Positions 1,902-61,659 of a stretch of DNA of 64,000 bases are shown here, piece by piece. A program made the translations under genes and the position numbers. The notes beneath the pieces are model-generated. The model ran no database searches. It was not told where the DNA came from and saw only the letters and a program-made list of their open reading frames with translations. The stretch is from an uncultured Candidatus Saccharibacteria bacterium (GTDB taxonomy: Bacteria; Patescibacteriota; Minisyncoccia; Phycocordibacterales; UBA9973): contig CAZWJU010000002.1 of the NCBI GenBank assembly GCA_964634365.1, forward strand, positions 103,150 to 167,149, given 5' to 3'. Within the stretch, counting starts at the first letter, position 1, and each line of letters begins with the position of its first letter.

Positions 1902-3791
1902 TTATACACTGAATACATCTCTAATGTGTCCATCCTTCACTTCAAATGCTAGAGAAACAAAAACTTTTGTATATGTAGAATCTGCATTTTTCTTCTCTAT
2001 TGTCACATAATAATTTCCATTTGAAATCAAACAGTAGTAGTGGCCTCTCGCATCAGAAACCTTGTGAGTAATTTCTTGATTATTGGATACAGAATACACG
2101 CGCAGAATTGCATATGATAGAGGTAGTCCTGTTGCTTTGTCTACAATACCTCCAAGTTTATGATTCTTGTACCCTACCTCTCTCAAAATAAACAAAAGTA
2201 TATATAGAGCAAATATAATTATGTTGTATAAAACAGGCGAAACCAAAAAGGCAATAAATGCTATGAAGAAACCGGCAGCAAAAAGAGTGTCTGATATTTG
2301 TCTAAAAATAGCATCGCGTCTTGAATAAAACTTCATCAATTTCTGTTGTTTTTTAGCAAATTCATTCCAATCGAAGTTGATCGGATCCATAGGGATATTT
2401 TTTGTTATAGGAGAATTCTCTGTAACCTCCAAGTCTTCACCAAAATACAAGTCTTGATATAGTTCGTCTTTTTTCTGTCCTGCTAATTTTTCTGAAGGAA
2501 ACTTATAGTTAGTTTTATTGGCAACTATTTTATAAGTCCCACTAGGTACCAAAAATCCAAAACGCCCATCTAGATCGGTTATAGATGTAGAAACTTCAGT
2601 TCCATATTTGTCGTACAAAACAACATAAGCAGGATCAAGTGGCTGCTTTGTTATAGAGTCATATACAGTTCCCCATGGTGGACGACGTTTCGATAGACCA
2701 AAAGCTGCTAGTAGTAGTGACCACAATCTAAAAGGTATGAAAACAAGTTCAGAGAGCGAAAGTGGATTCATAAATAGCAGTGAGGCAATAGATATAACCG
2801 CACTGGTTGTCAAAGCAAAACCAGTAAAAATCTTTGTAGCAAGACCTCCACTTTCGCTGTTTATATAATCCTCTATTCCTCCTGGTATACCATCTGTAAA
2901 ATCAATTCCTCCGTCTGTAATACAATCAATTCCTACGCAAATCTCTGGATCTGTAGGTGGGGGTACACAATCAGCACCGACACAAGTCTCTGGAGGATTG
3001 CACTCTTCACCTACACAACCAATCGGCGCATAATCACAAGGTGATGGACTGCCATAGTTTGTTGCAAACAAATCTTCACAGATATTTTCTTCTTCCGGTG
3101 GATTACAATCTTCACCTACACAGCCAACTGGTGCATAATCACAAGGCGAAGGCCCACCAAAATTTGTTGCTGCAACATCAGAACAGATAGAGATTGTGTA
3201 AGTACAAGGCAGTGCTCCGCCATAGTTTGCTGCATTCGTATCAGAACATAAACTAGGAGGATTACCGCCTCCACCTCCACCCGTAGTATCTCCATCTCTA
3301 GCATCTTTAGGTCTCCAATCAGTTTTCACACAAGCATCAGCGACTCCACAATCAAACTGAATCCAACCATAGTTTTCGCTCCATGCAAAACCTACAAATT
3401 CCCCGTCCATATCTATATAAACTTCTTGTGTAGAACTATTCGAGAAAGGGCCGAAGTTTATCCAGCCAGCAGCCTCACCCCATGCATATCCAGAAAGCTG
3501 ACCTCGAGAAGAATCTGTGTCTGGATCATTCAATACACCTCCTGAGTTAGGATCTAAGTGAATCCATCCTAGACTAGGACCCCAGATATCTCCAGTTACA
3601 GCGTCATCAGTTATAAGAACATCTTCTGCGCCAGCATTGCCAGGAACAAGCCAGTAAATCAATTGGCCGTGTGTGTATATTTTTGAAGTATAACTATCTA
3701 CATCGATAGTACCCTCTTCTTCAGAAGCAACTGCAGAAAAAACATTTAGAAAAAATATTGATATTATAAATAAAAATAAAATTTTCTTCAT
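1902..3791 (-). CDS. Large secreted, membrane-anchored protein. N-terminal repeats AW(G/S)E..GWI.F, tandem Cys-rich repeats about 35 aa long, TM segments, and a C-terminal CarboxypepD_reg-like beta domain.
   Basis: Signal peptide MKKILFLFIISIFFLNVFSAVASE. Repeats GYAWGEAAGWINF / GFAWSENYGWIQFD. Tandem repeats ATNFGGPSPCDYAPVGCVGEDCNPPEEENICEDLF x2-3. Hydrophobic helices. C-terminal GTYKIVANKTNYKF-like beta-sandwich motif. Confidence 0.6.
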   Translation of the reverse strand: MKKILFLFIISIFFLNVFSAVASEEEGTIDVDSYTSKIYTHGQLIYWLVPGNAGAEDVLITDDAVTGDIWGPSLGWIHLDPNSGGVLNDPDTDSSRGQLSGYAWGEAAGWINFGPFSNSSTQEVYIDMDGEFVGFAWSENYGWIQFDCGVADACVKTDWRPKDARDGDTTGGGGGGNPPSLCSDTNAANYGGALPCTYTISICSDVAATNFGGPSPCDYAPVGCVGEDCNPPEEENICEDLFATNYGSPSPCDYAPIGCVGEECNPPETCVGADCVPPPTDPEICVGIDCITDGGIDFTDGIPGGIEDYINSESGGLATKIFTGFALTTSAVISIASLLFMNPLSLSELVFIPFRLWSLLLAAFGLSKRRPPWGTVYDSITKQPLDPAYVVLYDKYGTEVSTSITDLDGRFGFLVPSGTYKIVANKTNYKFPSEKLAGQKKDELYQDLYFGEDLEVTENSPITKNIPMDPINFDWNEFAKKQQKLMKFYSRRDAIFRQISDTLFAAGFFIAFIAFLVSPVLYNIIIFALYILLFILREVGYKNHKLGGIVDKATGLPLSYAILRVYSVSNNQEITHKVSDARGHYYCLISNGNYYVTIEKKNADSTYTKVFVSLAFEVKDGHIRDVFSV

Positions 3792-30663: not shown

Positions 30664-31052
30664 AAAATCTACAACCCGCCTCTGGCGGGTTTTTTTCTAA
30701 TCATTACTTTTTCAAAAAAGTAATGCAAAAATTTCTTTGCGTATAACTCTGTGTATATTCACGAAACTCGGACTCACTAAAAGTATTAACTCGGCTACCA
30801 CCTCAAACAGAATACTTTTTCCTAACGGAACGTTCGTCCTCGTTTGTTCATATATACACAGAGTTATAAGGCAAAGCTAGGGCCCAAATACACCAATCCA
30901 TACTTTTAAAAAGTCTTGCGCAGCCGGGCAGGCGAGCAGAGCAAAAATCTAGCAAGATTTTATGCGTGCTTTTTAAAAGTTATGGATAAAAGAAAGTTTT
31001 CCGGAAACTAGGCTCTGAGTTACTGTAGACGTGATGTGGGTTACAAAAACAA
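30664..31052 (+). repeat. Copy A of a multi-copy structured non-coding element of about 390 nt. It starts with an A-run + cccgcc-tctg-gcggg hairpin. Strand uncertain.
   Basis: About 80-90% identical to 38181-38580 and 56392-56760. No ORF. Compensatory base changes between copies; see findings. Confidence 0.75.
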
Positions 31053-31083
31053 TAAAAAATCCCCAGAGGGGATTTTTTATTGT

Positions 31084-38129: not shown

Positions 38130-38580
38130 TTCGAAAGAAAAAATCCCCTCCGGGGATTTTTTCTTTTATTTAAAATAAAAATCTACAACCCGCCTCTGGC
38201 GGGGTTCATTTTTTAATCATTACTTTTTTAAAAAAGTAATGCAAAAACTTCTTTGCATGTATGAAAAATCTAGCTCACAACACGATAGCTCGTTAAAAAT
38301 ATTAACTCGCCCCGCAGGCTCAAAGCGGGGCTCAAACAGAATATTTTTTACTCCGTAACACTCGCTCTCGTGTGTTCACTTACGATTTTTCATGCAAGGC
38401 AAAGCTAGGGTTCAAATACACCAATCCATACTTTTAAAAAGACTAGCGAGTGTGGCGACACGAGCTCGAGGAATTTTCTAGCAAGAAAATATCCGTGCTT
38501 TTTAAAAGTGATGGATAAAATAAAGTTTTCCGGAAACTAGACTCTGAGTTACTGTGGACGTGATATGGGTTACAAAAAAC
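38130..38580 (+). repeat. Copy B of the structured non-coding element. Includes a shared upstream terminator hairpin.
   Basis: ttcgaaagaaaaaatcccctccggggattttttc + atctacaacccgcctctggcgggg... Collinear with copies A and C. Confidence 0.75.
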
Positions 38581-38598
38581 AAAAACCCTTACGGGTTT

Positions 38599-56335: not shown

Positions 56336-56820
56336 TTCGAAAGAAAAAATCCCCTGGAGGGGATTTTTTCTTTTATTTTAAATAAAAATATACAACCCGC
56401 CTCTGGCGGGTTGTATTGTATTTTAAATATTACTTTTTCAAAAAAGTAATGCAAAAACTTCTTTGCATGTATCAAGAAAGACACTCACAAAACTCGGACT
56501 CACTAAAAGTATTAACTCGGCCACTACCTCAAACAGAATACTTTTTCCTGTCGGAACGTTCGTCCTTGTTTGTTCGTGTATATTTCTTGAAACAAGGCAA
56601 AGCTAGGGCCCAAATATAACCAATCCATACTTTTAAAAAGTCTTGCGCAAGGTCGACGGGCCGAGCAGAGCAATTCGCTAGCAAGCGAATATGCGTGCTT
56701 TTTAAAAGTTATGGATAAAATAAAGTTTTCCGGAAATTGGACTTTGGGTAGCCAATAAAAAAGATGAAGTTGTTTTGAAAAAGTAATGATTAAAAAAATG
56801 AACCCCGCCAGAGGCGAGTT
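56336..56820 (+). repeat. Copy C of the structured element. It carries terminal inverted repeats; the 3' end mirrors the 5' hairpin region.
   Basis: The 5' end cccgcctctggcggg...attactttttcaaaaaagtaat and the 3' end gaaaaagtaatgattaaaaaaatgaaccccgccagaggcg are mutually reverse-complementary. Confidence 0.75.
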
Positions 56821-57763: not shown

Positions 57764-58348
57764 ATGTTAATCCCAACAGTCCTCGAAAAATCCCAATTTG
57801 GCGAACGCGCATACGATATTTACTCTCGCCTGCTAAAAGAGCGTATTATTTTCCTAAACGATGAGGTGAACGACTACACTGCAAACTTAGTTATTGCTCA
57901 GCTTATCTTCCTTGCTCACGAAGATCCAAAAAAAGATATTCAGCTATACATAAACTCTCCAGGAGGATCAGTTACAGCTGGTATGGCGATATATGACACA
58001 ATGCAATTCATAAAACCAGACGTTACTACTATATGTGTTGGTATGGCAGCATCTATGGGAGCAGTGCTTCTCGCTGGTGGTGCAAAAGGCAAACGTTTTG
58101 CTCTTCCAAACTCTCGCATGATGATCCACCAAGTACTCGGTGGCGCTGAAGGTCAGGCAAGTGACGTTGAGATTCGTACACGCGAACTATTACGTATGAA
58201 AAAAATGTTGAACGAACTTCTTGCAAAACACACAGGACAAAAACTAGCAAAAGTTGAAGCCGACGCTGACCGAGACTATTTTATGACAGCCGACGAAGCA
58301 AAAAAATACGGTCTTATAGATGAAGTAATCACAAAAGCTAAGATATAA
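57764..58348 (+). CDS. clpP: ATP-dependent Clp protease proteolytic subunit
   Basis: [27 protein letters not shown] Ser site, and MIHQ His. Confidence 0.9.
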
Positions 58349-58365
58349 ATACAATATCAAAATAA

Positions 58366-58392
58366 AAAACCCGCCTAGCGGGTTTTTTATTT
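58366..58392 (+). terminator. Rho-independent terminator after clpP
   Basis: aaaaaacccgcc-tagc-gggttttttat. Confidence 0.65.
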
Positions 58393-58410
58393 AATTGGTG
58401 TATTTAGAAT

Positions 58411-58620
58411 CCTTGGAGCCTAACTTTGCCTTGTAGATTTACATATCTAGACGAACGCAAATAGTGTTTCAAAAGACTCTGTGTAGTGCGACGGCGCGAA
58501 ACAAAGAAAATTTATAGCAGTAAATTTTCGTGTCTTTTGAAACACTATTAAGTGAGTTGTTTTTTGAAAAAGTAATAGTTAAACAAGTAAAGAAAAATTC
58601 CGCTTTGCGGAATTTTTCTT
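58411..58620 (+). repeat. Partial, diverged copy D of the structured element. It holds the conserved three-way-junction core plus a 3' hairpin.
   Basis: tagtgtttcaaaagact...aaaatttaTAGCAGtaaatttt...gtcttttgaaacacta aligns with the core of copies A-C, with compensatory changes. Confidence 0.6.
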
Positions 58621-58763
58621 TGAATTTTTAATACATAAACTACCGAGCGTATTCTATTACTCTCGCCTCTCGAATCAAGGTTACCCCGGTACGAAAATTG
58701 CACAGCGAATGCCTGTGCAATTTCATACGGGGCGAGACGTGGTAAATTTATTTTTTGTGATTT

Positions 58764-60290
58764 CTATCTTGCATACTCAATTACCCGAGTTTCTCTAATC
58801 AGGGTGACTTTTATTTCACCTGGATATTTCAATTCAGACTCTATTTTCTTTGCTATCTCACGAGCCATCTCTTTTGCTTCTACATCACCGACTTTTTCAG
58901 GAGTTACAAAAAGTCGTATCTCGCGACCAGCTTGGAGTGCATAAGATTTTTCTACACCTTCAAACTGATTTACAAGAGCTTCAAGTTCTGCAAGTCTGCG
59001 CAAGTAGTTTTCGACACTATCACGTCTTGCACCAGGTCTTCCGCCAGATATATAGTCTGCTGTTTGTACTATCACAGCTTCTAGTGTTTCGTGTGGGCAG
59101 TCATCGTGGTGAGATTTCATAGCTTGTATAACGCGTGGATCAGCACCAAATTTCTGCAAGATTCTGATACCGATATCTATGTGTGTACCTTGAACCTCAT
59201 GGTCTAGGGCCTTACCTATATCATGTACAAGCGCACCAGCTTTTGCTATCTGCACATCTGCACCGAGCTCTTCGGCTATCATGCCCGCGATGTGAGTCAT
59301 CTCAATTGAGTGTTGAAGTACGTTTTGTCCATAACTTGTTCGGAAATATAGACGTCCGATTATGGCTACTATACGAGGATCGAAGTTGAATATTCCACAT
59401 TCGTACACTGCTTGCTCACCCTTCTCTTTGATAATTTTATTTATATCTTCTTTTGCCTTATCTACCATTTCTTCGATCTTTGCAGGTTGGATACGTCCAT
59501 CGAGGATTAGGTTCTCAAGTGCAAGTCTTGCTATCTGTCTCCTAACTGGATCAAAACTAGATATTACAATAGTTCCAGGTGTGTCATCTACGATTAGCTC
59601 TACTCCGGCTGCACGCTCAAACGCTCTGATGTTTCGTCCTTCCTTTCCAATTATCTTTCCTTTGATTTCATCGTTTGGAATAGAAACGTTTGTCGCCATC
59701 AGTTCAGCTGCAGTAGAAGATGCTAGTCTTTGGATTGATGTTGCGAGTATTTCTTTTGCGCGTCCATCGAGTTTCTCCTGACCTGATTGTTCGAGCTTCT
59801 GGATTCTAACAAGTAAATCTTCTTCATAATCTTTTTCGATAGTAGTCATGAGCTCTGCTTTTGCATCTTCGCGAGTTAGTCCGGCTACACGCTCAAGCTC
59901 TTTGTGTTTTGTTTCTTCTAGCTCAACTGTTTTTTCTTTGATTTTTTTGATCTCTTCAACTTTGAGTTTTATATTCTCAACCTCTTTGTCTATTTCGGTT
60001 TGGCGAGCATCTAAAAGCTCCTCTTTTTTGATAAGGCGCTTTTCAGTTTCTTTGAACTCTATTTCGCGATTTTTCTCTTCCCTTTTTAGTTCTTCGTCAC
60101 GCTCCTCAGCTTTCTTTTTTGCTTCGTCTATTATTCTTTGCGCTTCCTCTTTTGCAGAGATCAATATCTTTTTGATCTCAAGCTCCATTGAACCCTTTTG
60201 TCCGAGGGCTATGATTAGTCGGAGATAATATCCGACTGCAACACCTACGACTAGTGCTAGTCCTAGGAATGCCAATAAATGTAAATTCAT
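58764..60290 (-). CDS. rny: Ribonuclease Y
   Basis: N-terminal TM, coiled coil, KH domain (GKIIGKEGRNIRAFE) and HD domain (HSIEMTHIAG...LVHDIGK). Confidence 0.9.
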   Translation of the reverse strand: MNLHLLAFLGLALVVGVAVGYYLRLIIALGQKGSMELEIKKILISAKEEAQRIIDEAKKKAEERDEELKREEKNREIEFKETEKRLIKKEELLDARQTEIDKEVENIKLKVEEIKKIKEKTVELEETKHKELERVAGLTREDAKAELMTTIEKDYEEDLLVRIQKLEQSGQEKLDGRAKEILATSIQRLASSTAAELMATNVSIPNDEIKGKIIGKEGRNIRAFERAAGVELIVDDTPGTIVISSFDPVRRQIARLALENLILDGRIQPAKIEEMVDKAKEDINKIIKEKGEQAVYECGIFNFDPRIVAIIGRLYFRTSYGQNVLQHSIEMTHIAGMIAEELGADVQIAKAGALVHDIGKALDHEVQGTHIDIGIRILQKFGADPRVIQAMKSHHDDCPHETLEAVIVQTADYISGGRPGARRDSVENYLRRLAELEALVNQFEGVEKSYALQAGREIRLFVTPEKVGDVEAKEMAREIAKKIESELKYPGEIKVTLIRETRVIEYAR

Positions 60291-60945: not shown

Positions 60946-61105
60946 TTTACTTGTTGTCTTCATCTAATATATTTTCAATCTCTTTCATTGCATTTAGAGC
61001 AAGTTCCTCTATCGCAGCCTTTTCTGATTCGGTCGCAGTACCCTGCTTTATCTTTTCGACCATAGCTTCGTATTCTTCTTTTGTGTATTTTATTTCGTCT
61101 TGCAT
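60946..61105 (-). CDS. Small acidic protein, about 52 aa. Hypothetical. Approximate coordinates.
   Basis: ATG...MQDEIKYTKEEYEAMVEKIKQG... read from the minus strand; too short to appear in the provided ORF track. Confidence 0.3.
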
Positions 61106-61140
61106 ATTTTTTATTTTACCATATTTAAAAAAATGAAATA

Positions 61141-61440
61141 AAAAAAACCCGCAGAACTATTGTCTGCGGGGCGGGTCCACGGCGTGGGACCCTGTTTTTT
61201 GCCGGGGGGGGTCATGACTTCCTCCTGGCTCTCTTTTTTGGCCCAGTCGCTTCCGGTTATGGAAGTCTTCCTTTCGAAAGACTTCGGCGTAGTGCGACGG
61301 ATCGGGCCTCTGTTGTGCCCCGGCTCTTGGCCTAGCCCCTATCCTTTCGGTAGGGGGGCGGGCTCTGGCACGGGGGCTTCCGGCGTTTTAGACGTCCTTT
61401 ATCGACGCATAGGTAGTATAGCACAGTGACTAATCTTTGT
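61141..61440. ncRNA. GC-rich structured non-coding segment. It appears to be a divergent fifth member of the repeat-element family; strand uncertain. A minus-strand terminator sits at 61141-61175.
   Basis: GC far above the local background. GNRA-capped hairpin gaagtcttt-c-GAAA-g-gaagacttc. Shares tttcgaaagact + tagtgcgacgg with copy D and ccgg...tagacgt with copies A/B. No credible ORF. Confidence 0.45.
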
Positions 61441-61600
61441 CAAGCCCCTTATGCTTATCCTTCCGAGTATACCTGGCTTTATCTTTATGTGTCTTCCCTT
61501 TCATGTTTACTCCTGCAAATACATTTCGAGACATCTCTCTGCTTTCCTTTGCGAGATCATGTTTCACAACAATACGGATATTTTTCTTTTTCTTGCTCAT
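61430..61600 (-). CDS. Small Lys-rich basic protein (56 aa), hypothetical
   Basis: MSKKKKNIRIVVKHDLAKESREMSRNVFAGVNMKGKTHKDKARYTRKDKHKGLDKD. Not in the ORF track because it is under 60 aa. Confidence 0.35.
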   Translation of the reverse strand: MSKKKKNIRIVVKHDLAKESREMSRNVFAGVNMKGKTHKDKARYTRKDKHKGLDKD

Positions 61601-61659
61601 AATTTTTTATTTTAAAAAATTAAACGAAAAAAGAAGGGATTACTCCCCTCTTTAAAAAA

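Follow-up and report, generated by a model that had tools for sequence, protein, structure and literature searches.

A GC-rich island in a Paceibacteria chromosome segment as a predicted, lineage-restricted structured small RNA gene

What does a GC-rich, apparently structured segment of about 300 nt represent in an AT-rich bacterial chromosome? The question is raised by positions 61141-61440 of a 64,000-nt stretch of contig CAZWJU010000002.1 (assembly GCA_964634365.1, positions 103,150 to 167,149), which is referred to here as the window. A previous description made from the letters alone, the sequence-only reading, took this island for a probable fifth, divergent member of a repeat family with four copies in the window (A, B, C and D), and kept an unrelated non-coding RNA (ncRNA) as a fallback. 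Our results support the fallback. With a conserved fold, expression signals of its own and no match to any described RNA family, the island is a predicted small RNA (sRNA) gene, independently transcribed from the minus strand and folded.

The GC content of the island is 57.3%, compared with 37.0% for the window, as the sequence-only reading had noticed. Of all 300-nt segments in the 64 kb, the one that begins at 61148 has the highest GC content (59%), the best segment not overlapping it reaches 52%, and no other island in the window is longer than 150 nt at a GC content of at least 58%. The host is a Paceibacteria/Nomurabacteria-like member of the Patescibacteria (Candidate Phyla Radiation, CPR), placed through the relatives of its RNase Y; the best species representative shows 94% amino-acid identity, and the Logan contigs L001 and L002 belong to the same species as the window.

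A consensus scan located a sigma-70-type promoter that is absent from the sequence-only reading. It lies on the minus strand at 61443..61415 and consists of a -35 box TTGACA (61443..61438), a 17-nt spacer with a TG, and a -10 box TATACT (61420..61415), matching the consensus at 11 of 12 positions. Both hexamers are invariant across all orthologues described below. The -35 box overlaps the last codons and the stop of p56 (61430-61600, minus strand), a 56-aa Lys-rich small gene that lies directly upstream of the RNA and had been noted as a tiny adjoining open reading frame (ORF). The minus-strand rho-independent terminator named in the same description was also confirmed (61140..61170; stem 61170..61148 followed by U8 in the window, and by a U7-8 run overall), and it is nearly invariant in the orthologues. 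Because these two signals delimit the transcript at about 61409 and about 61141, the predicted RNA (61141..61410, minus strand) would be some 265-270 nt long with a GC content of 60%, its start site being placed at about 61408-61410 from the -10 box and its 3' end in the U-run 61147..61140. The strand assignment agrees with the folding results. The minimum free energy of the minus-strand fold is -104 kcal/mol (z = -3.9), and the plus strand gives z = -2.2. Both tetraloops of the fold read GAAA on the minus strand alone, and 17 of the 168 pair cells in the alignment are G.U pairs, which would become A.C mismatches on the plus strand.

The productive route to homologues was p126, a 126-aa membrane protein encoded downstream of p52, the gene that follows the RNA. 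Its four closest homologues (82-93% identity) are found on short contigs from Logan and the European Nucleotide Archive. Four contigs (L100, L102, L105 and L106) extend far enough upstream, and all four hold the RNA between homologues of p56 and p52. As L105 and L106 are identical across the RNA, they contribute three new alleles. The blocks that stay invariant in the alleles are the promoter hexamers, GCGUCGAUAAAGGACG in the 5' hairpin, ACCGAAAGGA, GCCGGGGCA.A..AGAGGCCCG and UCAUGA; the terminator is invariant or nearly so, and the stems vary.

The structure consists of six consecutive hairpins, P1, P2/P3, P4, P5, P6 and the terminator, with A-rich linkers between them (coordinates on the minus strand). 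P1 (61392..61408) is the 5' hairpin GCGUC-GAUAAAG-GACGU, whose helix 1 is 100% paired and invariant except for one change from G.U to G-C. P2/P3 (61317..61377) combines a closing helix GCCCC/GGGGC with an irregular hairpin that carries an invariant GAAA loop (61348..61345); the GAAA-capped hairpin within it spans 61363..61330, and compensatory changes in helices 2-5 occur at pairs 61-77 and 64-74. The A-rich junction CA.A..AGA (61309..61316), which lies within the block GCCGGGGCA.A..AGAGGCCCG, is invariant at all specified positions. P4 (61240..61308) is built of a closing helix GGCCCG/UGGGCC, an inner helix P4a and a distal hairpin P4b, and it holds the block shared with copy D, CCGUCGCACUAC...GUCUUUCGAAA; helices 6 and 7 changed in a compensatory manner at pairs 120-173, 139-156 and 141-154. 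P4b (61285..61262) is the GNRA-capped 10-bp hairpin seen by the sequence-only reading, a GC-rich stem GAAGUCUUUC-GAAA-GGAAGACUUC, which in L100 is rebuilt as an AU-rich stem of 12-14 bp, CAAUAAUUUUUC-AAAA-GAAAAAUUAUUG. P5 (61201..61229) has a purine-rich 5' strand, a C-rich 3' strand and an invariant, palindromic tip UCAUGA (61217..61212), and all four alleles form this same hairpin. P6 (61173..61192) is the hairpin GGGUCC...GGACCC, which reads UUGAUCC/GGAUCAA in L100 and so provides two compensatory pairs taken directly from the alignment.

An internal direct repeat was also observed, with CCGGAAGC..C..G.GCCA occurring before P2/P3 and at the 3' side of P4 (61366-61383 and 61239-61256), and the sequence YCGAAAGGA is common to both GAAA hairpins. 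These likenesses are hints that the P2/P3 and P4 domains may be of common origin.

A covariance model, R2, was built from the 5' 171 positions of the RNA with a hand-checked structure, and covariation was scored on the alignment based on this model. Standard pairs occupy 96.4% of the pair cells, compared with at most 51% when the partners were slid, and 5 pairs changed on both sides, compared with 1.2 in shuffles, none of 500 of which reached 5; given four sequences and a fitted alignment, these values are supportive of the structure rather than a proof of it. The last 100 nt of each allele fold independently into the same three hairpins, P5 with its UCAUGA tip, P6 and the terminator.

The RNA has no coding potential. 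The open frames found in the island, 89 aa on the plus strand and 34 aa on the minus strand, are explained by the lack of stop codons in GC-rich DNA, and an AGGAGG-N5-AUG arrangement is present in two alleles. However, the 89-aa ORF has no homologue among 5.8 billion proteins, in a search also meant to catch ORFs miscalled on homologous RNA genes. The AUG internal to the RNA (in P5) opens unrelated peptides, in frame 0 relative to p52 in two alleles and in frame 2 in the other two, the indels among orthologues are not multiples of three, and the substitutions keep base pairs, not codons. That the island encodes a small protein is therefore hardly credible, and the sequence-only reading was right to see no credible ORF here. 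A leader peptide with a PPG stall motif was considered as well and rejected, as its frame is not conserved.

A comparison with known RNAs gave negative results throughout. Rfam 15 at gathering thresholds yielded no match to any of its 4227 families in the entire window, and with E values up to 10 the locus and its orthologues gave scattered terminator-like noise, with no housekeeping RNA and no family common to all alleles. ARAGORN found neither a tRNA nor a transfer-messenger RNA (tmRNA) in the window. By sequence comparison, then, the RNA matches no described family, in agreement with the sequence-only reading, which had recognised no tmRNA, signal recognition particle (SRP), RNase P or tRNA motifs. 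Domain IV of SRP RNA is characterised by a GNRA loop, symmetric and asymmetric loops and GGAAGCA-type sequences; neither GAAA hairpin of the island has such loop sequences, and no Rfam match to SRP RNA appeared at E values up to 10. The suggestion of the sequence-only reading that the RNA might be 6S-like did not hold, since there is no Rfam 6S match and the conserved structure is six tandem hairpins with no rod and central bubble.

RNase P RNA deserved closer attention. The smallest bacterial RNase P RNAs are close in size to the island RNA, which is also GC-rich, single in the window and preceded by a strong promoter. Rfam thresholds often miss the RNase P RNAs of CPR bacteria (Lui et al. 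2021, PMC8172020), and the RNase P reading was therefore checked by hand. Neither RF00010 nor RF00011 matched any of the four alleles at E values up to 10. The 5' and 3' ends are not joined by a helix, and no long-range pairing of the P4 type is kept across the alleles; the single-sequence fold has one long-range pairing, GCCGG/CCGGC, and L105 has lost it. Strings that look like CR-I (GGAAAGUCC) and CR-V (ACAGAA..GGCUUA), namely GGAAGUC and ACAGAGGCCCG, are faint and stand in reverse order. Moreover, relatives lack the RNA at the corresponding position, and its rate of sequence divergence is similar to that of the genes around it. It is thus very improbable that the island is a housekeeping RNA (RNase P, 6S, SRP or tmRNA) too diverged for Rfam to detect.

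The proposed membership in the A-D family was examined with models of both the family module and the island RNA. Copies A, B and C, at 30690-31060, 38205-38590 and 56415-56800, are each about 370 nt long, and D is a shorter relative. All four contain a module of about 130 nt on the minus strand (30882-31005, 38408-38536, 56607-56736 and 58443-58570, respectively), in which a long AU-rich stem surrounds two small hairpins, among them GYGC-CGUC-GCRC; A, B and C have further conserved blocks besides the module. The covariance model R1, made from an alignment of D and five relatives of D, gives 108.6 bits for D and 50-62 bits for each of A, B and C, in every case on the minus strand, and the module itself covaries strongly (17 pair changes on both sides, compared with 8.9 in shuffles). 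R1 also found 27 further distinct modules (28 matches, one of them a reverse-strand duplicate) in the loci of 21 of 80 relatives, among them L033 15400-15530, L064 12086-12215 and 20047-20177, three copies in L053, and others in L076, L074, L044, L039, L016, L042, L024 and further loci. The module has no match in Rfam, and copies C and D gave terminator-like noise only at E values up to 10. From these sequence data the module looks like an undescribed structured repeat or sRNA family spread across the Paceibacteria clade.

None of these models links the family to the island. With filters off and E values up to 10, R1 matches neither 61141-61440 nor the RNA of the orthologues L100, L102 and L105, and the membership reading thus fails the check that the sequence-only reading itself had suggested. 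R2 does not match A-D, and in nhmmer searches each of the four copies retrieves the others and many Paceibacteria loci, but never 61141-61440. Of the three sequence blocks on which the sequence-only reading had relied, one is a real similarity: a 29-nt block shared with D has a local alignment score of 36 (shuffle maximum 26) and contains an 11-mer that occurs in D and the island alone. However, L100 lacks this block, and L102 and L105 have altered versions of it. Within D the block is part of the covarying 4-bp mini-hairpin GYGC-CGUC-GCRC, whereas the counterpart in the island, GAUC-CGUC-GCAC, cannot pair, and the orthologues have CCGUUGCAC or lack it. On sequence grounds it is regarded as a coincidence or a small conversion tract, not as homology. 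The second block, an A-run with a CCCGC hairpin, is simply a terminator, and the third (CCGG...TAGACGT), like the other similarity to A, B and C, is at the level of chance, with 35-64 of 200 shuffles as good in the same orientation.

The island RNA and the A-D elements are all intergenic and structured, with flanking terminator-like hairpins, and the AU-rich P4b of L100 (UUUUUC-AAAA-GAAAAA) recalls, by eye only, the AU-rich stems of the family. The A-D family, on the other hand, is AU-rich, multi-copy (four copies in the window) and clade-wide, while the island RNA is GC-rich, of a different architecture, present once in the window and found nowhere in the sampled loci of the same 80 relatives. 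As R1 misses the island and its orthologues and the block shared with D is not conserved, the reading as a fifth member is unsupported, and the chance that the island is a divergent or founder copy appears extremely slim. The RNA is independent of the A-D family.

Several features of the family itself were observed along the way. The blocks of D differ from those of A-C in order and in orientation relative to the module, the end of copy C repeats its own start in inverted form (the hairpin and ttactttttcaaaaa), and a full-length relative of A, B and C lies just after RNase Y in the 94%-identical L003 (2700-3020). In L025 (12077-12251) an 11-bp hairpin stands after a tRNA-Arg(UCG) and precedes GGCGGAGTGCGACGGCACGAGCC, which, read as its reverse complement, is similar to the CCGTCGCACT block of D and the island RNA; this is the only GC-rich near-match among the relatives. 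The match CCGTCGCACTCCGCC beside this tRNA-Arg was rejected as a candidate: it overlaps the tRNA on the other strand and is treated as chance.

The position of the RNA upstream of p52, on the same strand and with a terminator that ends 35 nt before the p52 ATG, raises the possibility of a cis-regulatory leader, a riboswitch or attenuator of the p52-p126 operon in which a ligand, or translation from the internal AUG, would set the terminator. A Shine-Dalgarno-like tract precedes the AUG in P5, which is in frame with p52 in two of four alleles. Neither the tract nor the frame is conserved, however. No riboswitch or leader family matches the RNA, and no sequence competing with the terminator was seen by eye or in the folds, although no dedicated search for alternative structures was made. 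The gene p52 has its own extended -10 element beyond the terminator of the RNA. In the window this is TGGTAAAAT (61113..61121, minus strand, with the p52 ATG at 61105), which is kept in the orthologues and marks the end of the RNA unit. It takes the form TGGTAAAAT or TGCTAAAAT, 6-7 nt ahead of the p52 ATG, in both RNA-bearing and RNA-less groups, TGCTAAAAT being the version in L075, L107 and L110, three more distant relatives where p52-p126 exist with no RNA. Since the promoter of p52 persists where relatives have no RNA, the RNA is unlikely to serve as a leader or riboswitch, and we rate this role as improbable overall; the RNA is independent of p52.

The spacing of the p52 -10 element is that expected of a leaderless mRNA, as judged from sequence. 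Several small genes have no Shine-Dalgarno sequence but a TAAAAT -10 box only 6-8 nt before the ATG, in many cases preceded by TG: p52 (61105-61121), p56 (about 61600-61625), L075 (about 3705-3730) and L107 (about 915-936). These close -10 boxes suggest that leaderless mRNAs may be common in the lineage.

A role confined to p56 is a more serious competitor. The RNA could be mainly a cis element, a structured 3' untranslated region (UTR) and terminator of the p56 mRNA that blocks 3' exonucleases and insulates the leaderless p52 promoter, with no function in trans. The gene p56 has no terminator of its own and therefore its mRNA should end at the terminator of the RNA, and the RNA begins at the p56 stop codon. 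Moreover, the two seem to travel together. Between L100 and the window, identity is 98-100% over the stretch that begins at the terminator of the RNA and takes in p52, p126 and the first part of RNase Y, and 48-86% over the RNA body and p56, with a sharp recombination breakpoint at 61157/61156. Since this breakpoint falls at the terminator, p56 and the RNA were inherited together across it, and the L100 allele is so divergent because its donor was more distant, not because it hypermutated. Apart from L100, the RNA and the genes next to it diverge at about equal rates. On the other side, a p56 homologue with 46% identity in L004 is followed by a plain terminator where the RNA is missing, so that a single terminator hairpin does the same job there. 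In addition, 200 nt of extra conserved structure, the invariant loops and a dedicated near-consensus promoter exceed the needs of insulation. A purely cis role is thus rather unlikely. L105 was seen to be mosaic as well, the gene upstream of p56 being replaced in it.

The distribution of the RNA is narrow. In 1.34 Mb the R2 model matches the four alleles alone, and searches with nhmmer and blastn for RNA homologues in the RNase Y neighbourhoods of the 80 relatives returned same-species contigs only. A metagenome scan with the pattern CCGTCGCACTACN{20,50}GGAAGCGAC, which relied on the non-conserved block shared with D, gave 13 chance matches in GC-rich coding DNA. Scans of viral collections with blocks of the RNA and BLAST of the RNA against phage genomes likewise gave chance matches only (short ones in the case of BLAST), and exact-protein look-ups for p56 and p52 provided no further allele. 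Given that distant relatives carry p56 (L004) or p52-p126 (L075, L107, L110) with no RNA, the RNA is either restricted to a narrow group or relocates; the gene is young or fast-moving and is seen in a narrow species group only. The independent short-read contigs L101 and L103 were observed to start exactly at the 3' border of the RNA, 10-14 nt upstream of the p52 ATG. Homologues on record may be few because this locus, GC-rich and flanked by homopolymers, seems to be a point at which assemblies break.

The explanation that we consider probable, with some but by no means full confidence, is that the island encodes a lineage-restricted, stable structured sRNA that is independently transcribed and acts in trans. 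A strong sigma-70 promoter at the p56 stop would drive an RNA of about 265 nt and 60% GC that ends at a strong intrinsic terminator and works in trans as a stable folded molecule. The GAUAAAG loop of P1, the GAAA loop of P3, the junction CA.A..AGA and the UCAUGA loop of P5 would be the contact points for a protein or RNA partner, and the variable distal P4 stem would be a structural or spacer arm only. The 5' hairpin and the terminator would shield the ends of the RNA and, as p56 has no terminator, the same sequence would double as the 3' UTR of the p56 mRNA. The palindromic UCAUGA loop could, more speculatively, mediate dimerisation by loop-loop contact.

Several observations weigh against a trans-acting sRNA. 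A search for complementary targets elsewhere in the window returned nothing longer than 12 nt, and no partner or target was found. The gene could matter chiefly in cis, by stabilising the p56 mRNA or by providing insulation. The four alleles come from one narrow clade, which leaves the covariation statistics thin, and in two alleles P5 has three A.C mismatches, positions that on the plus strand would form G.U pairs. Nor was the RNA found around RNase Y in the 80 relatives, a result that covers those loci alone. A CsrA sponge was considered and rejected, since the number of GGA motifs is, by estimate, about what composition predicts. A more ambitious alternative would make the RNA the first member of an undescribed, tertiary-structured CPR class that works with the co-inherited p56 and is wider in Paceibacteria than the sampled loci show. 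Such an RNA could be a ribonucleoprotein scaffold or a ribozyme, or it could associate with itself by means of its UCAUGA loop and GAAA tetraloops; we regard this alternative as clearly unlikely.

The remaining observations concern the surrounding genes. The window is a chromosome segment with genes for trigger factor, ClpP, RNase Y, NusA, PGK, TIM, UvrD and type IV pilus proteins. The genes for ClpP and RNase Y are convergent in the window (57764-60290), with element D between them, and point in the same direction in the closest representative (L003, 236-2592); the segment from RNase Y to the p56 region appears to be inverted or rearranged, with repeat elements at the junction. Direct repeats of 17 nt (15 of 17 identical) stand on either side of the RNA locus, at 61039-61055 inside p52 and at 61470-61486 inside p56, and are probably due to chance in A-rich coding sequence. 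The p56 protein is small, basic and conserved, and has a weak match to DUF7230 (E = 5e-4, below the cutoff). Its KGK..Y.RK.KHKG motif recalls, by eye, ribosome-binding tails of the ArfA type; as an ArfA-like protein p56 was rejected, as Pfam and NCBIfam give no ArfA match and only the sub-threshold one to DUF7230.

The regulatory and structural RNAs of CPR/Patescibacteria are almost unexplored. As CPR genomes are tiny, a strongly promoted non-coding gene of 265 nt and 60% GC is unlikely to be idle, and the locus is a well-delimited candidate for follow-up, with a promoter, a terminator, six allele-supported helices and invariant loops. The island should stay out of the alignment of the A-D family, which merits an analysis of its own.

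Among known systems, the arrangement of the locus may be compared with that of type-I 3'-UTR-derived enterobacterial sRNAs such as DapZ and MicL, whose promoter lies in the 3' end of the upstream coding sequence, which share the intrinsic terminator of the mRNA, and whose downstream gene is independent. By analogy, the island promoter overlaps the 3' end of p56, its terminator would be shared with p56, and the unit is independent of p52. However, the island RNA is much longer and more structured (six hairpins and two GNRA loops), no seed or target was found, and there is no sequence relationship; no Hfq context is known in CPR bacteria. Like 6S RNA, it is predicted to be a stand-alone, structured RNA of the 200-300 nt class with a strong promoter, and it is probably abundant, but 6S is one long irregular helix with a central bubble and the island RNA is a chain of tandem hairpins. 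With the diverged RNase P RNAs of CPR bacteria it has in common that it escapes Rfam thresholds and is near the size of minimal RNase P RNAs, while it lacks their P1 closing helix, conserved P4 pseudoknot, order of CR-I and CR-V, sub-threshold match to RF00010 and conserved locus. A further parallel is offered by searches of GC-rich intergenic regions (GC-IGR/DIMPL), which yield orphan structured ncRNAs, such as the raiA motif RNA, in AT-rich genomes (PMC6429828, PMC8723152, PMC11109978). The island RNA likewise forms a GC island in an AT-rich genome and has multiple hairpins, GNRA loops and a promoter and terminator of its own. Many genomes went into the definition of those motifs, whereas the RNA described here has so far been seen in a single narrow Paceibacteria lineage and has no Rfam match. 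The element is a predicted, undescribed, lineage-restricted structured sRNA, an orphan ncRNA of the familiar kind that occupies GC-rich intergenic regions of AT-rich genomes.

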